This document shows positions 8,575 through 54,019 of a stretch of 64,000 nucleotides of DNA, piece by piece. The DNA comes from a virus. The stretch lies in the IMG/VR virus record IMGVR_UViG_3300040960_001746. One strand, given 5' to 3'. Both the position numbers and the translations under genes were made by a program. Under the pieces are notes generated by a model. The model was not told the origin of the DNA and searched no databases. It saw nothing but the letters and a program-made list of their open reading frames with translations. The first letter of the stretch is position 1, and every line of letters begins with the position of its first letter.

Positions 8575-10155
8575 TTATGTTTTATGTTCATACAACCATA
8601 GTTTATTACCACAATCATATATTCTATATATTTTTCTATCGAACATAATTTGTTTTTCAGTTTTATTTTTATCAAAACCTTCTCTAACCAACCTATTTTT
8701 TTTAAAGTTTAATCTATGATACCTCATATCATTTTTTACATACCAATAATTAGGTTTTGTTTCGTGTATATATTTAAAACCTAAATTTTCATATAATCCA
8801 CCACTAAACCATCTATTATCAGAATATGATTTTACTATTTTAGGGTTAATCTTTTTTAAGAAATACTTAAATAATTTTGATGCCCCACCTATAACATTAT
8901 AATTTATTTTATTGGAAAATCTTATTAACTCCCATTCCTCACCATTACCAATTCCATTACGTTTACCAAAAGTCATTACCGATACCAATTCATCATTGTA
9001 TAACAAACCAAACTTTAATGTTGTATTTACATTACCTTGAAGATGATTTTCATCTAAAAATGTTTTACTAATAGAAGGACTAAGTTCAACAACATCACAC
9101 TTCCTACCATAAATTTTTTTATTGACAATATTAAGTCTATTTTTTAAAACAGATAAAACAATATCCTTTTTCCATAACCACTCATCTTCAAAAATATGTA
9201 TTAAATCAATACCATTCTCTCTACATAGTTTTGTTTTTTCTAAATGGTAATCTTTATTAATAAAAAGTTCATTGTGCCAATATAAACCATTAATTTCAAT
9301 ACCTATGTTGTGACTCGGTATAAACAAATCTATTTCTCTATTATCACCTTCTATTTTTTTATGTCTCTCAACATCAACTCCCCACTGTGTTAATATATCA
9401 TATAATTCATTTTCATATGAAGAAGATGATGACATACCAATAGGATTACAGTTTGTACATAATACATAATTATGTTTTTTTCGTTCCCTTAATAAATTTT
9501 GGGTAATTTCATAAGAATCATTACATTTATCACAATTAATAGTTAAGGATGTTAAATCATTTGAAATATTGGTAATGTCTAACTCTTCATATCTTTCATT
9601 TATTTTTTCTTTAAGTTTTTGTCTAAACACTTCAGATTTTGAATAATTGTCTACACCATAAAGATCCATACAAGTTTGTTTATACTTCTCAAAATTATTA
9701 TATCCTATATTACCATATTTTAATAATTTAGTATGTAACATTTTTTCTTTATTATTATAATTTTCGTCACCGTATTTTTCTTTTTTTGTATTCTTTTGTT
9801 TTTTAATGAAATCTTCAGTTTGTGTATAGTAATCTACACCATATTTTTTTTGGTTCGTATCTTTTATCCTTTTAACCATTTCAGTTTTATTACTATTGAA
9901 ACAAGAAAGTGAACAAAATTCATTATACCCCCTATCTAATCTATTACTGAATTTGGTTTTTTTCCCACAACTACAATTTGGTACTTCTGTTAGTTTATGA
10001 TAATAAAACCATATCTTTTCTTTAAAGGTAGACAAGTCATAAGATGAACAATAATTTATAATCTTATTATATTCGTCCACATGATTTTTTGAAAACCATT
10101 TCTCATTGGTTTTATATCCTGATTTATTATCTGTAGTGAAAAAAGAAAAATCCAT
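8575..10155 (-). mobile_element. Hef-like free-standing homing endonuclease (Zn ribbons, KYG repeats, VSR/DUF559-like nuclease, C-terminal Mom/GNAT-like domain)
   Basis: EIDLFIP...GIEINGLYWH...IHIFEDEW; ELIRF...GGASKL...SYSD.RW..G.LY..LGF; RIYDCG. Confidence 0.8.
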
Positions 10156-10223: not shown

Positions 10224-11102
10224 TTAAATTATATGTTTTTTAATTTCATCAATCACCCACTCAATATTATTGTTGATGTCGTCTTCCCAAAACCTTAGTA
10301 AAATATAATTATTTTTTAAACACCATTCGGTTTTAATTTTATCTTTAATTAAATTATTTTTCTGATGTTCAATTACAGGTATTTTATGTTCTGTTTTTGG
10401 GTTACAGTGCCAAAAATCACCGTCAATTTCGATTAATATATTTTTTCCTTTGATTTTAAAATCGTATAACGATTTAATTTCTCTAACGTAAAATTGTTGA
10501 TAATAATCGATATTAAGATTATCCAGTAATTTACTGAAATTATTTTCTAAATTAGATATTACTGTAAATCCATTTTCTTTTATATATAAAAGTCTTTTAT
10601 GACTTTGTTTTTCTTTATTCTCTTCCTTACCCCAGTATTCTCTCATACCTTCATCAAGTTTATCTAAAACATACTGTGGACGTTTTCTACCCTTAAGTGC
10701 CTTTGAAATTTTTTTATTCCTTTCTAAATTAGAACTTATCTTATCCCCATAATCTAACCTTTCGTCATCTTCTTTGGTTAACCCTTTATTCCATATTACA
10801 AGTTCACCTGACCCATATAACTTTCTTTGTGTATCTTTAGATTTTTTCTGTGCGTCAACATTATGCCCCCAATTATTGTTAACTCTAGACGCATGACCTC
10901 TAATATAATCTCTAAACCCTTTTTGAATTCCTAAGAATGTTGGTACCTCACCACAACCACATTTACATTCAGGTGTTTTACCTTCTAAATTATGTTTAAT
11001 AAAAGTTTCTTGCGGTTTAATTTTATGTTTTTTAACATTATGAGAAGATAAACTCCATAATGTATCATATTCCTTATCACATATTTCACATTTAAATTGC
11101 AT
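10224..11102 (-). mobile_element. Free-standing homing endonuclease (C2H2 finger, CxCGC, NUMOD3-like, VSR/DUF559-like nuclease)
   Basis: FKCEICDK...H....H; CKCGCG; WNKGLTKE; KISKALKG; YDF...IEIDGDFWHCNP...LRFWEDDI. Confidence 0.8.
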
Positions 11103-47824: not shown

Positions 47825-47912
47825 TTTTTATTAATTTTTTTTTATCGTAATGATTAAACAGGTGTATTCTATTAAGATTTTTAAGTATTTTATATTTATT
47901 AATAAAAGTATT

Positions 47913-48788
47913 ATGAAAAATGAAATTATAAATTTATATTTAAATGGATATGGTTCACCTACCATTTCGAAAAATTTGGGTATACCTAAAAAAAAAGTTT
48001 TAAAGATTTTAAACGAAAATAATTTAATAAAAAAAAATATTAACGAGGAATATAAAGATTATACGTTAAAAGATGGAAAATGGTATCATCATTATATTTG
48101 CGACACATGTGAAAAAAAAATAGAATGTTACGCACAAAAAAAATTTTTGTTACGAAGGAATTTAAAAAATAAAAAAACTTGTAAACCATGTTCTTTAAAC
48201 AAGCAAAAAGGTGAAAGTAATCCATTTTATGGTAAAAAACATTCTTTAGAAAGTATAAAAAAAATACAATTAAAAACAATAGGTGTTAAACGTAGTAATC
48301 ACACTGATGATCCTGAATATAAAAAAAAGGTTAGTGAGACAAAAAAGAAATTATGGAGAAGTGGTAAGATGGAAAAAACGAGAAAAAAATTAAGTAATCT
48401 TATGAAAGAAAGACATCGTAAAGGAGAATTAAAAAGTTTTAATATATCTAAAGCAGAAAAAGAAATAGTAAATAATCTTAAGAAAAATGGTATAGAGTGT
48501 GTACATAGTTTTAGGGTAGACAGTAAAATATTCGATATTTATATCCCATCACTTAATCTATTAATTGAGTATAATGGTGATTACTGGCATTGTAATCCAG
48601 CAAAATACGAACCTCACTATTATAACCATAAAAAAAATAAAACTGCGATGGAAATATGGGAATATGATAAACATAAACTTTACTTAGCAAAAAAAGAAGG
48701 TTATAATTGTGAAGTAATATGGGAAACCGATTACAAAAAAAATAACTCTATAATATTTGAGATAATAAAAAATTATGAACAAAACTAA
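47913..48788 (+). mobile_element. Free-standing homing endonuclease (HTH, Zn ribbon, NUMOD3, VSR/DUF559-like nuclease)
   Basis: LY..GY....ISK.LGI; CDTC/CKPC; GESNPFYGKKHS; FDIYIP..NLLIEYNGDYWHCNP...IWE.D. ATATTTAT at 47892-47899 supports start 47913. Confidence 0.85.
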
Positions 48789-50072
48789 AAACATTATCAC
48801 CCCAGTCAGTCACAAAATAAAGGTATTAGTAGTGCCTAGTGACAGGACTGGGGTGAGCTGACGGGCTATTACAGATCTACAATACCACATATTAAGTTAG
48901 AAGAATACTTTCCTAAAGAGTTTCATGTGGATATTGATTACGAACCACAATTAAATGATGATAACTATCTTAAACAATACGATTTAATTCATTATCACAG
49001 AACATTGGGTGATTATGATAATCTACCTAAACTATTGGAAAGATGTGATGAATTGGGTATTGCGACAATTATGGATATTGATGATCATTGGTCACCAGGT
49101 CCTGATCATCCTGCGTGGCAAATCATCAAACAAAATAATTTAGATAAGAAGATTGCGAATAATCTTAAGGTATCTAGAAATGTTACAACTACTACTTCAG
49201 TATTTGCGGATGAGATTTCTAAATTAAATAAGAATGTCTTTGTCTTACCAAACGCAATTAATCCAGACGAGAAACAATATCAGAGTAACCCTGAGAAAAG
49301 TGATAGAATTAGAATCGGATGGTTAGGCGGTTCTTCACATATGAAAGATTTGGAAATACTAAGAGGTTTAATGACTAAACTTAAATCAGATGGTTTATTA
49401 GATAAAGTACAATTTGTTTTATGTGGTTTTGATTTAAGAGGTACTATGACTATGATTGATCAGAAAACAGGTGAACAAAAACAAAGACCCATTAAACCAA
49501 AAGAATCTGTATGGTATCAATACGAAAGAATATTTACTGATGATTATAATTTAGTAAGTGAAGATTATAAAAAATTCTTATTGTCTTTTGAAAATAAAGA
49601 ATATGAGAATGTACACAATGAACCATATAGAAGAGTATGGACTAAACCTATTACTTCATATGCGTCTAATTATAATTTATTCGATATATCACTTGCACCA
49701 CTTAAAGAAAGTACATTTAATAAGGTTAAATCACAACTTAAGGTTATTGAGGCGGGATTCCATAAGAAGGCAATAATCGCACAAGATTTTGGACCTTATC
49801 AGATAGACATTGAAAACGCCTATGTGAAAGGTGGTGATATAAATGAAGAAGGTAATGGTTTCTTAGTACCTACAAGAAAAAACCATAAGTTTTGGTATTC
49901 ACATTTAAAAAGGTTGATAATGAATCCCGAATTAATTACTAAATTAGGTGAAAATCTTTATAATACAGTCAATGGTACATATGATATGAAATCTGTTTGT
50001 GAGAAAAGAAGAGATTTATATGTTAAATTAGTAGAAGAAAAAAAAGGAGTGGAAGTTGACTTAGTGAAATAA
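48775..50072 (+). CDS. GT-B (GT4-like) glycosyltransferase, reading frame interrupted by an 8-nt gap at 48859-48866 (or 48856-48863)
   Basis: 5' frame MNKTKNIITPVSHKIKVLVVPSDRTGVS-TGA; 3' frame GYYRSTIPHIKL...DIDDHW...VLPNAI...IGWLGGSSH..DL...DISLAPL...FN..KSQLK.IEAG. Confidence 0.8.
48797..48866 (+). other. Putative recoding (ribosomal bypass) element: long hairpin followed by AGC-TGA-CG-GGC
   Basis: tcaccccagtc (48797-807) pairs perfectly with gactggggtga (48846-56); gtcac/gtgac and aggtatt/agtgcct form inner stems. Confidence 0.6.
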
Positions 50073-51443: not shown

Positions 51444-51649
51444 AATACTTAGGGGATAATAGATTTAATTTTACGGAAGAAGAAATGTTTAATTTACAAA
51501 TAAACTCAATCTCAGGGTGTAAAGTTAAAGTGGGTGATGAATATTATAGTGTTTGGAAAGAAGGTAGTACTGTTAGGTATAATAAATTCCATATCGACTT
51601 TGAACTAACAGAAGAAGAATTTAAAGGATTAAATATAAAAGATGATTAG
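51440..51649 (+). CDS. Hypothetical protein
   Basis: ORF overlapping both neighbours (ATGA coupling). Confidence 0.6.
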   Translation: MKYLGDNRFNFTEEEMFNLQINSISGCKVKVGDEYYSVWKEGSTVRYNKFHIDFELTEEEFKGLNIKDD

Positions 51650-53300
51650 TGTAGTATATTGTACAAGGGAATCAAACCCAAAACATACTGAACATATTAT
51701 AAAAACTTCTGGTTTACATAAACATATAGAAGTTATTGAGATTGTTAATAGCGGAGAATCTTTAACGTCTGCCTATAATAGAGGTTATAAACAAGCTAAA
51801 AATGATATTATTGTTTTTTGTCACGATGACATATTAATACAAACCAAACAATGGGGTAAAAAACTTAAAAAACATTTTGATCAGGAAGAAAAATATGGTA
51901 TTATCGGTGTAGCTGGTAGTAAATATCTCCCTATTTCTGGTAAATGGTGGGAAAAACCTAAATGGATGTATGGTAGGGTAAAACATACACATAATGGTAA
52001 AAGTTGGTTATCAGAATATAGTAGTGATTTAGGTAAAGGTGTAGAAGATGTTGTTAATGTTGATGGTTTATTTTTCGCAGTGCATAAAGAAAGAATACTT
52101 AATGATAATGACTACACCCCTTTTGATGAAAGAGTTAAAGGTTTTCATTTTTATGATGTAGATTTTTGTTATAAAAATTTTGTTTCGGGTGTGTCAGTTG
52201 GTGTCATCACTGACATACGAATTAATCATATGTCTATTGGTGAAACTAATGATGAATGGGAACAAAATAGACAACAATTTGTTGAAAAGTATGGTGAAAC
52301 TTTACCATTAAAGGTTGACGATAAATTTAGGAATAGAAAATTAAAGGTTTTAATTGGGTGTTTAAATTTTCAAGGTCTCACTGGATCAGAAATTTCAACA
52401 ATGGAATTAGCTAAAGGTTTATCTAAAAATGGTTGCGAGGTATATGTGGTTTCCCAAATAGGTAAATCATTTAAGAGAGAGGCGGAAAAACATAATATTA
52501 AAGTATTTTCAATTCAAGAACCTCCAGGATTTAAAGTTGGGGATGGTAAATGGGTGATAAATACACCACAAGGTCAGGTAGTATCTAAACCAAATACTCT
52601 TTATATGGTTAAAGATATGAAATTTGATATTATCCACTCAAATCATACACCTATTACTGAAAGATTATTACAACTATACCCGAACAATAATTTTGTGAAT
52701 ATTGTTAGATCAGAAGTTATTGATTTGGAGAATCCGATTGTTGATGAAAAAATCAAAAAGTATATTGCAATACGACCTTCTATAAAAGATTATATTGTGA
52801 ATAATTTTGATATCGATGAAAATAAAGTTGAGGTAATTTATAATCTTTTTGATAAGAGCAGATTCCAACCAAAGCAAATTGATAAGGAAACTGATAAAAA
52901 GGTAACTCTTTTTGTTGGTACAATGGATTATTTACGTAAACATGCAATTGAGGATCTTATACAAAATTGTGAGGAACTATGGTTAGTAGGTAAAGATACT
53001 ATGGGTTATGCTAGCGAATTTGATAAAACTTATGAAAATGTAAAATACTTCCCTCCTACCGATAACATTGAAGAATTTGTTAATAAATGTGATGAAACTG
53101 CAGGTATCTTTTTAGGTAGAACGACAATAGAAGGTTATTTATGTAATAAACCAGGATGGATTTACACTGTAACAAAAGAAGGGTATGTAATAGATAAGGA
53201 ATTTACTGAAGTACCTGAAGATATGAGTATTTTTGATAATGATAAAATAATAGAAAAATTTAAAGAAGTTTATATTGAAACCTATAACGAATTAGTATGA
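51642..53300 (+). CDS. Bifunctional glycosyltransferase (GT2-like + GT4-like)
   Basis: AYNRG...FCHDD; VDGLF; FHFYD; second domain TGSE...ELAKGL...DIIH..H; GRT.IEG. Confidence 0.85.
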   Translation: MISVVYCTRESNPKHTEHIIKTSGLHKHIEVIEIVNSGESLTSAYNRGYKQAKNDIIVFCHDDILIQTKQWGKKLKKHFDQEEKYGIIGVAGSKYLPISGKWWEKPKWMYGRVKHTHNGKSWLSEYSSDLGKGVEDVVNVDGLFFAVHKERILNDNDYTPFDERVKGFHFYDVDFCYKNFVSGVSVGVITDIRINHMSIGETNDEWEQNRQQFVEKYGETLPLKVDDKFRNRKLKVLIGCLNFQGLTGSEISTMELAKGLSKNGCEVYVVSQIGKSFKREAEKHNIKVFSIQEPPGFKVGDGKWVINTPQGQVVSKPNTLYMVKDMKFDIIHSNHTPITERLLQLYPNNNFVNIVRSEVIDLENPIVDEKIKKYIAIRPSIKDYIVNNFDIDENKVEVIYNLFDKSRFQPKQIDKETDKKVTLFVGTMDYLRKHAIEDLIQNCEELWLVGKDTMGYASEFDKTYENVKYFPPTDNIEEFVNKCDETAGIFLGRTTIEGYLCNKPGWIYTVTKEGYVIDKEFTEVPEDMSIFDNDKIIEKFKEVYIETYNELV

Positions 53301-54019
53301 TATCAGTAATTTTAAACGTATATAAAAGACCTTACACATTAGAAAAACAAATAGAGTCTTTATTATCTCAGAGTATTAAAATAAAAACTGAGAATATTCA
53401 TGTGTGGTATAATAATGTTGACGGATTAGAACAACCATTACCTAAAAATCAGAATATTAAAACTTATAAATGTAATTACAATACAAAGTTTTTTGGTAGA
53501 TTTACGATACCGTTATTGTGTCAAACACCATATATTGCGATACTAGATGACGATATAATTCCCGGTAAAAAATGGTTTGAAAACTGTTTAAAAACAATTG
53601 AAAAAACTAATTCTATATTAGGTGCTAGTGGTGTAATAACAAATGGTAAAACTTATATACCGAATCAAAAAGTTGGGTGGAATGGATTGAAAAATGAAAT
53701 ACCTGTAGAGGTTGATCTCGTTGGTCATGGTTGGTTTTTTAAACAAGAATGGGCTAAATTTATGTGGTTAGAATCACCACCTTCTTGGGATAATGGGGAA
53801 GATATGTTTTTTTCTTATGTCTCACAAAAAAATGGTATAAAAACAATGGTACCTCCTCACCCTTTAACAGACGTTGAGTTGTGGGGTAATAACCCCAATT
53901 TAGATAATAACTGGGGAATAGATAAAAATGCGCATTCATTAACCGTATCAAACCATCTAAATTTAAGAAATAATATTGTAAAAAATTTAAAAAATAAAGG
54001 ATGGAAAACAATAAAATAA
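53297..54019 (+). CDS. GT-A (GT2-like) glycosyltransferase
   Basis: ISVILNVYKRP; ILDDDIIPG; VDLVGH.WF; GED. Confidence 0.8.
   Translation: MISVILNVYKRPYTLEKQIESLLSQSIKIKTENIHVWYNNVDGLEQPLPKNQNIKTYKCNYNTKFFGRFTIPLLCQTPYIAILDDDIIPGKKWFENCLKTIEKTNSILGASGVITNGKTYIPNQKVGWNGLKNEIPVEVDLVGHGWFFKQEWAKFMWLESPPSWDNGEDMFFSYVSQKNGIKTMVPPHPLTDVELWGNNPNLDNNWGIDKNAHSLTVSNHLNLRNNIVKNLKNKGWKTIK

Follow-up and report, generated by a model that had tools for sequence, protein, structure and literature searches.

Bypassing in bacteriophage T4 gene 60 uses three features: a stop codon immediately follows the take-off codon, the take-off and landing codons match, and the mRNA refolds in the wake of the ribosome (PMC7026636; bioRxiv 10.1101/2022.08.31.505936; bioRxiv 10.1101/2024.12.09.627546); this refolding has been proposed to aid forward bypassing (PMC7026636; bioRxiv 10.1101/2024.12.09.627546). 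A 2022 preprint states that, homologues of the gene 60 element aside, nothing comparable had been described in other phages (bioRxiv 10.1101/2022.08.31.505936). Besides these homologues, there is one partly tested candidate in Streptomyces phage Hau3, for which bypass of 10-base inserts opening with the rare codon UUA has been proposed with partial experimental support (PMC10732093). Here, we describe a locus in a viral sequence from IMG/VR (record IMGVR_UViG_3300040960_001746), analyzed as a 64-kb window of 29% GC whose coordinates are used throughout, in which a glycosyltransferase gene is broken near its 5′ end by a cassette that includes a putative homing endonuclease gene. Judging by a comparison with its relatives, we consider it likely that a programmed short translational hop across the break makes the full-length enzyme, and the comparison suggests that the window and its relatives represent a much shorter natural counterpart of the gene 60 bypass. 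A search of the literature found no published report of this endonuclease-hop cassette.

The likeness to the mobA/gene 60 system of T4 extends over several parts. In both, an endonuclease-linked mobile cassette breaks an open reading frame (ORF), and a stop codon abuts the take-off codon (bioRxiv 10.1101/2022.08.31.505936; PMC7026636). Both also have matched or nearly matched take-off and landing triplets, mRNA structure 5′ of the take-off codon, a cassette that survives decay of its endonuclease (T4 mobA is itself a pseudogene), and an insert that is probably self-immunizing. They differ in scale, with 6 to 8 bases skipped in the window family compared with 50 in gene 60, and in that the gap here is too small to hold a take-off or A-site stem-loop. 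The 5′ hairpin is strongly conserved and covarying here, whereas no conservation between clades is seen for the 5′ stem-loop of gene 60, and the nascent chain is just 28 aa long. In addition, the target is a glycosyltransferase rather than a topoisomerase, and the endonuclease gene sits upstream of its target gene without splitting it. The endonuclease itself, with NUMOD3 and a putative Vsr/DUF559-like nuclease domain, is of a different family from MobA, which is an HNH family enzyme. We saw no sequence homology between the two cassettes.

Like this locus, the Hau3 terminase has a short phage coding gap with a slowly decoded codon in the A site, and a 5′ stem-loop has been proposed for it. It differs in its trigger, which is a hungry sense codon, in its regulatory role, which is linked to the cell cycle of the host, and in that no endonuclease cassette is described (PMC10732093). 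Moreover, Hau3 invokes a flanking Shine-Dalgarno sequence (PMC10732093), whereas genes in the window almost lack such motifs. Low-level tRNA hopping over stop codons in Escherichia coli constructs is also comparable, in that the peptidyl-tRNA quits a codon that neighbors a stop or a slowly decoded codon and pairs anew with a matched triplet a few nucleotides downstream, in any frame (Weiss et al. 1987 and O'Connor et al. 1989, cited in bioRxiv 10.1101/2022.08.31.505936). As summarized in that preprint, those hops are unprogrammed, inefficient and synthetic, whereas the site described here is natural and conserved, comes with a hairpin of its own, and belongs to a gene under selection. A third comparison is with the byp inserts in the mitochondria of Magnusiomyces capitatus (27 to 55 bases), likewise mobile inserts in coding sequence that are bypassed in translation between matched take-off and landing codons (cited in bioRxiv 10.1101/2022.08.31.505936). 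In the account given there, they differ from our element in being longer, GC-cluster-like and mitochondrial, in carrying a take-off stem-loop inside the insert, and in having no endonuclease.

In the window, the transferase gene begins as a short ORF whose ATG at 48775 overlaps the end of the endonuclease ORF and which stops after 28 codons at TGA 48859-61. The transferase body lies in a different frame, which is open from 48843 and ends at 50072. Between the last serine codon of the short ORF and the tyrosine codon of the body, the sequence reads AGC-TGA-CG-GGC, and taking out 8 bases joins ..TGVS to YYR.. to give a protein of 28 + 401 = 429 aa. The original prediction had been made from the letters of this stretch, and all of its statements on the endonuclease ORF, the short ORF, the frame break, the stop and the hairpin coordinates hold. 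Its reconstruction of a protein of about 429 aa upon removal of 8 nt is likewise borne out by relatives with an intact gene. A protein search returned thousands of relatives from marine, estuary and freshwater assemblies, mostly of 418 aa; the closest intact ones are 97-98% identical, start with MSKIK[IV]LVVPSDRTGVSYYRST.. and read unbroken through ..TGVSYYR.., which is exactly the predicted junction. Compared with the intact allele, the window has 8 extra bases between Ser AGC and Tyr TAT and 13 new codons in place of the first two, and the last 15 codons of its first ORF correspond to the start of the intact 418-aa relatives.

The gap is real and not an assembly error, because contigs of two unrelated DNA runs (freshwater X4 and marine X6) span the site without an indel and 29 further loci show the same arrangement; a concern raised with the original prediction is thereby removed. 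TGA is a genuine stop in this phage, terminating 14 of the 60 long ORFs of the window, clear genes among them. As for the identity of the protein, it matches the glycosyltransferase family phrog_7162 (E = 7e-40). The scores bearing on a GT-B assignment of the family 1/4-like kind comprise no Pfam match, a PDB profile hit to a group-1 transferase at just E = 0.1, and Atlas neighbors with Glycos_transf_1. Among deposited phage genomes, there was no similar DNA, and the best protein match was 35% identical.

The 29 further loci came from protein-based and pattern-based searches, the metagenome pattern including the TGA; together with the window, they make 30 sequences with 17 distinct junction sequences. 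All 30 show the same order of elements, namely a take-off codon AGC or AGT, TGA, 0 to 2 bases, a landing triplet (GGC, GGT, AGC or AGA) and the resuming codon of a ..[YFK][YF]R.. segment. Six bases are skipped in L028 (L numbers are our handles for loci), where the break is an in-frame stop; 7 bases in the L002 group (nine contigs), L042/L046, L043/L054, L038 and L058; and 8 bases in the window group, L003, L041, L045, L048, L055/L059, L039 and L051. All three frames are thus present, and one and the same frameshift cannot repair every allele, whereas a hop from the AGY codon to the landing triplet restores the protein in each. A landing triplet identical to the take-off codon (AGC/AGC) is found at each of the 6-, 7- and 8-base distances, and among the landing triplets the central G is invariant and the first base always a purine. 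These relatives, with AGC, GGT or AGA as landing triplets and 6 to 8 bases skipped, back the earlier proposal of take-off at AGC and landing at GGC. In IMG/VR, a search with the stop left out of the pattern returned the same three loci, all with TGA, and no hairpin-bearing allele without a stop. Separately, a 4-bp mini-stem is possible at 48856-48867 and often in relatives, formed by the take-off codon and the landing triplet, each with its next base (AGCU .. AGCU or GGCU); it would draw take-off and landing together, and is absent in L039 and L051.

Immediately 5′ of the gap, positions 48797-48856 can fold into a hairpin with an outer stem of 11 bp, an inner stem of 5 bp and an apical stem of 7 bp. 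Its minimum free energy in a 131-nt context is -35 kcal/mol (z = -3.9; 0 of 200 shuffles as low), and of 42,624 sliding 66-nt folds covering both strands of the window, none is more stable: the hairpin reaches -32.5 kcal/mol, compared with a mean of -6.8 (standard deviation, 3.7). The sense fold is more stable than the antisense fold (-32.5 versus -27.9 kcal/mol). Folding energies are -29 to -34 kcal/mol in broken alleles and -3 to -7.5 kcal/mol in intact ones. The 3′ arm arises from five synonymous changes in the SDRTGVS codons, at which intact alleles carry varied AT-rich synonymous codons. That the 5′ arm is supplied by the N-terminal extension and is complementary to the SDRTGV codons, as had been noted from the window alone, agrees with the allele comparison.

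Across an alignment of the 17 distinct junction sequences, the 16 pairs of the outer and inner stems are 99.6% paired. The search pattern fixed the 3′ arm save for three positions and left the 5′ arm outside; at all three free positions, we observed compensatory double changes (CG to GC, UA to AU and AU to GC). Although the N-terminal extension (..[IM][TA]P[VD]S[HR]K..) is itself conserved, the 5′ arm encodes it, and its H-to-R changes track RNA pairing. Indeed, one of the covarying changes replaces His by Arg, which argues that the RNA pairing, and not the peptide, is conserved at that residue. G-U pairs are tolerated on the sense strand and thereby favor sense-strand RNA, rather than DNA, as the selected form. 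Support is weaker for the apical stem, because no double changes were seen there. By these comparative measures, the hairpin is selected as an RNA. A search of Rfam gave no match in the cassette, its sole sub-threshold hit lying elsewhere, and no terminator-like site was found. The inverted-repeat listing of the window, dominated by AT-rich repeats, was uninformative. We also considered a Shine-Dalgarno-like role for the G-rich 3′ arm, which lies 6 bases ahead of the landing triplet, and dropped it because such a motif occurs at just 2 of 52 genes.

The native start of the gene has been replaced by a mobile cassette that joins the gene for a putative free-standing homing endonuclease to a remade glycosyltransferase 5′ end. 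If the gene is read by hopping, the events would run as follows. On the resulting mRNA, the ribosome would stall with peptidyl-tRNA-Ser (presumably with anticodon GCU) on AGC and UGA in the A site. The anticodon would then release its codon, the mRNA would slide by 8 bases, and the tRNA would re-pair at GGC through C:G and G:C pairs and a U-G wobble at codon position one, with decoding restarting at UAU. The likely motor is the GC-rich hairpin, whose 3′ arm reaches the take-off codon. Using textbook ribosome footprints, we estimate that the inner stem would have its 3′ strand 13 to 17 bases upstream at take-off, at about the mRNA exit, and that the 3′ strand of the outer stem, from 10 bases upstream through the first take-off base, would be inside the ribosome. 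Zipping up the outer stem would require the mRNA to be pulled backwards through the ribosome, and a slide of 6 to 8 bases would permit 6 to 8 pairs to form. We assume that termination at UGA is probably slow enough to allow time for this. As regards a special phage tRNA, there is no tRNA gene within the 64-kb window.

Several points weigh against a hop. Its support is comparative throughout. The landing triplet of the window is merely a near match (GGC versus AGC) that requires the U-G wobble, and the three alleles with an AGA landing triplet require a mismatch at the wobble position. The gap proper, of 3 to 5 bases, fits no take-off stem-loop of the gene 60 type, and it is too short for stop codons to rule out other frames. 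The hairpin-bearing alleles are mutually related and not independent, and variation could be observed at three 3′-arm positions only, because the search pattern fixed the rest. One cassette allele, L053, has an in-frame stop near codon 100 of the transferase body, either as a real pseudogene or through an assembly error. Lastly, two metatranscriptome runs yielded contigs on the endonuclease gene and the transferase body, none of them spanning the gap, and are uninformative either way.

Among the alternatives, the one that survives best, improbable as we judge it, is conventional recoding specific to each class of allele: a -1 (or +2) shift in the 8-base alleles, a +1 shift at the stop in the 7-base alleles and UGA readthrough in the 6-base allele, each adding 2 or 3 residues to a loop. 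The other frames across the gap are indeed open in every allele, and +1 shifting at a UGA-C stop has a precedent in E. coli prfB. Three distinct mechanisms would be needed at one homologous site, however. There is no X XXY YYZ slippery heptamer in 48843-48861, the RNA structure is located upstream of the site, whereas -1 stimulators sit downstream, and peptidyl-tRNA-Ser would pair poorly in the +1 or -1 frame. Moreover, the extra residues would vary freely (G/S/R, D/E, L-T/L-I), yet the landing triplet is always one that can pair with the Ser-AGY anticodon.

Comparison of the broken alleles indicates that both coding pieces are under protein-level selection. The ratio of nonsynonymous to synonymous substitution rates (dN/dS) of the transferase body is 0.05-0.16 among broken alleles, a sign of strong purifying selection; some of these alleles (L043, L002 and L044; dS, 0.5-1.4) form a well-supported clade without intact members. 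Nearly all complete loci retain an intact downstream ORF, and the 15 conserved N-terminal codons are kept at the protein level in all broken alleles. As an alternative to a hop, the two pieces might never be joined, a 28-aa peptide and a protein of about 400 aa (or 381 aa) being made separately by re-initiation past the stop or from an internal start, or the large piece alone might be needed. We regard this as quite unlikely. Split subunits can function, as in the T4 topoisomerase (bioRxiv 10.1101/2022.08.31.505936), and gene callers do annotate a 380/381-aa product from GTG 48927: a minority of relatives are called at this length from the equivalent position, and their contigs share the break. 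That position is not conserved, however, being ATT, ATC, ATA or GTT in other alleles, which bears on a protein that starts only at this GTG, an outcome contemplated in the original prediction. Between the stop and the conserved YYR segment, there is no ATG, GTG or TTG. Furthermore, the 21 codons between the landing triplet and the putative internal start are under purifying selection in the transferase frame, with a ratio of nonsynonymous to synonymous polymorphism (pN/pS) of 0.33 and, between the window and L002, a pS of 0.67 and a pN of 0.02. Maintenance of the N-terminal codons in every broken allele also speaks against products made apart.

The same data bear on the idea, very unlikely in our estimation, that the gene is dead or dispensable in carriers and that hairpin and insert serve the endonuclease alone, through self-immunity or a DNA-level structure. 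In its favor, the cassette is selfish, L053 has its in-frame stop, and GC-rich recoding would also abolish a DNA target site. Yet dN/dS stays low with dS up to 1.4 in the broken-only clade, downstream ORFs remain intact in almost every complete locus, and the G-U pairs indicate sense-strand RNA. Immunity by itself needs no hairpin, no stop abutting the take-off codon and no matched landing triplet.

Removal of the extra bases from the RNA, by editing or small hairpin-guided splicing, has next to no claim, since no bacterial or phage mechanism is generally known to cut out 6 to 8 bases, the region has no Rfam match, and a gap that varies in length yet always comes with a stop and a matched codon bears the mark of translation rather than splicing. 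Two further candidates were rejected outright: UGA reassignment, given the 14 of 60 long ORFs that end in TGA and the 7- and 8-base alleles that it would leave unrepaired; and a group I intron or intein at the gap, for which 8 bases are too short and the first 16 codons adjoin the break.

That the break arrived with a cassette is best seen by comparison with L011, which has an intact gene and is 95-96% identical to the window on both flanks. There, 101 unrelated bases stand where the window has 1,022 (47845-48866); homology stops at 47844 and picks up again precisely at TAT 48867. On its right side, the cassette ends with the gap, and other pairs of broken and intact alleles show the identical right boundary. 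One marine run contains both forms, with the joint from 47844 to 48867. In addition, the sequence surrounding the cassette is a mosaic in L045, and broken alleles are interspersed with intact ones in the gene tree. No co-conversion tract is visible beside the cassette when the window is compared with L011. From the pattern across these alleles, the cassette behaves as a mobile element. Its insert and recoded codons probably also shield the carrier allele from its own endonuclease, as the parallel with T4 mobA/gene 60 suggests.

Two alleles in IMG/VR (L012 = L006 and L023 = L010) retain a remnant of the endonuclease gene, interrupted by an in-frame TAA, together with the N-terminal extension and the 5′ arm. 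The GC-rich 3′ arm and the gap are missing from them, and the gene is in frame. These alleles fold at -12.6 kcal/mol and are probably recombinants of a cassette allele and an intact allele. As a separate observation, L038 (1123-2214; also L055/L059) has an in-frame insert of about 364 aa in the transferase. This insert contains a LAGLIDADG_3 domain (E = 4e-9) and resembles an intein, which would give the gene a second selfish element.

Relatives of the putative endonuclease align from ATG 47913, and not from the longer ORF start at 47850. The protein comprises an N-terminal helix-turn-helix, an invariant CxxC..CxxC zinc finger, NUMOD3 (E = 8e-7) and a putative C-terminal Vsr/DUF559-like nuclease domain, and it also matches PHROG homing-endonuclease families. 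Three observations bear on the original assignment to a Vsr/DUF559-like nuclease and make it plausible. First, a paralogue in the window that scores above the Pfam cut-off for DUF559 aligns with the endonuclease at E = 4e-9 and 28% identity. Second, a match to Pfam MTES_1575 was obtained for 8 of 9 orthologues, only below the cut-off. Third, the top Foldseek hits of an AlphaFold 2 model are Vsr and the catalytic domain of I-Bth0305I (PDB 1vsr and 3r3p), with TM-scores by target of 0.49 and 0.73 at weak E values of about 2-4e-3. I-Bth0305I is intron-encoded, whereas the window enzyme is free-standing, with NUMOD3, zinc finger and helix-turn-helix. A PDB sequence search with the endonuclease gave a helix-turn-helix hint only. 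Two other endonuclease-like genes lie in the window on the minus strand, at 10224-11102 and 8575-10155, one of them the DUF559 paralogue and the other with DUF7487 and a sub-threshold MTES_1575 match.

At least 11 other loci have an intact copy of the endonuclease gene (56-99% identity) immediately 5′ of the hairpin. A remnant of 110-130 bases, the 3′ end of the gene, is left in L003, L028 and the alleles that have only the 5′ arm, and the gene is absent from the L002 group and L039. The expectation that the insert is confined to endonuclease-bearing alleles thus fails in its strict form, since the L002 group and L039 carry the insert alone; the link to the endonuclease stands, as the remnants in L003 and L028 point to loss after acquisition. 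By this comparison, the cassette outlives the loss of its endonuclease. The features of the locus are compiled in Table 1.

Table 1. Features of the broken glycosyltransferase locus (window coordinates)
Feature	Coordinates	Strand	Evidence
Whole mobile cassette (endonuclease gene, new transferase start, recoded first codons, stop and gap)	47845..48866	+	Comparison with L011 and other allele pairs
Putative free-standing homing endonuclease, 291 aa	47913..48788	+	NUMOD3, PHROG families, fold matches
Transferase ORF1, 28 codons: 13-codon cassette-specific extension, then conserved KIKVLVVPSDRTGVS	48775..48858	+	Match to intact relatives
Hairpin 5′ arm, within the N-terminal extension	48797..48813	+	Pairs in 17/17 distinct alleles although outside the search pattern
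Apical 7-bp stem with 3-nt loop	48821..48837	+	94% of cells paired, no double changes
Hairpin 3′ arm: SDRTGV codons and first base of take-off codon, in GC-rich synonymous codons	48839..48856	+	Codon comparison, folding
Take-off codon AGC (Ser)	48856..48858	+	Last sense codon ahead of the stop; AGC/AGT in all alleles
Gap TGACG, read as untranslated, opening with stop TGA	48859..48863	+	TGA, TGA+1 or TGA+2 bases in relatives
Landing triplet GGC, proposed re-pairing site, not decoded again	48864..48866	+	Always abuts the resuming codon
Transferase ORF2, 401 codons and TAA; decoding proposed to resume at TAT 48867	48867..50072	+	phrog_7162, identity to intact alleles, dN/dS

Some observations concern the surroundings of the break. 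The 3′ end of the endonuclease gene contains a promoter-like site at 48679-48707 (TTTACT, a 17-base spacer and TATAAT), which may be a promoter of the rebuilt transferase gene, in a promoter scan that overall was not above chance. The sequence from about 48673 onward is kept in all three independent endonuclease deletions (L003, L028 and L012/L023). Shine-Dalgarno-like motifs precede just 2 of the 52 long ORFs in the window, a near absence that hints at a Bacteroidota-like host. Downstream of the locus, at 51642-54019 and beyond, there are more glycosyltransferase genes, GT-2-like and GT-4-like, in a glycan cluster.

Beyond the hop itself, the arrangement invites a broader proposal, which we advance tentatively and hold at slightly less than an even chance. 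Hairpin, stop and matched triplet would together make up a minimal portable bypass module, in which a refolding hairpin suffices for an efficient forward hop of 6 to 8 bases, with neither a take-off stem-loop nor a long nascent-peptide signal. Spread by a Vsr-like homing endonuclease as a self-immunizing unit, it would be a second, independently evolved endonuclease-bypass cassette. Such sites are probably under-counted, because gene callers truncate the genes to 380/381 aa. If the reading holds, the window and its relatives would be a second natural family of bypass elements, whose dozens of wild variants in gap length and landing triplet amount to a ready-made mutational series. These variants could probe what makes a ribosome release its codon and slide, and could test mRNA refolding as the forward drive. 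It would also mean that selfish endonucleases have used recoding more than once to invade essential coding sequence.

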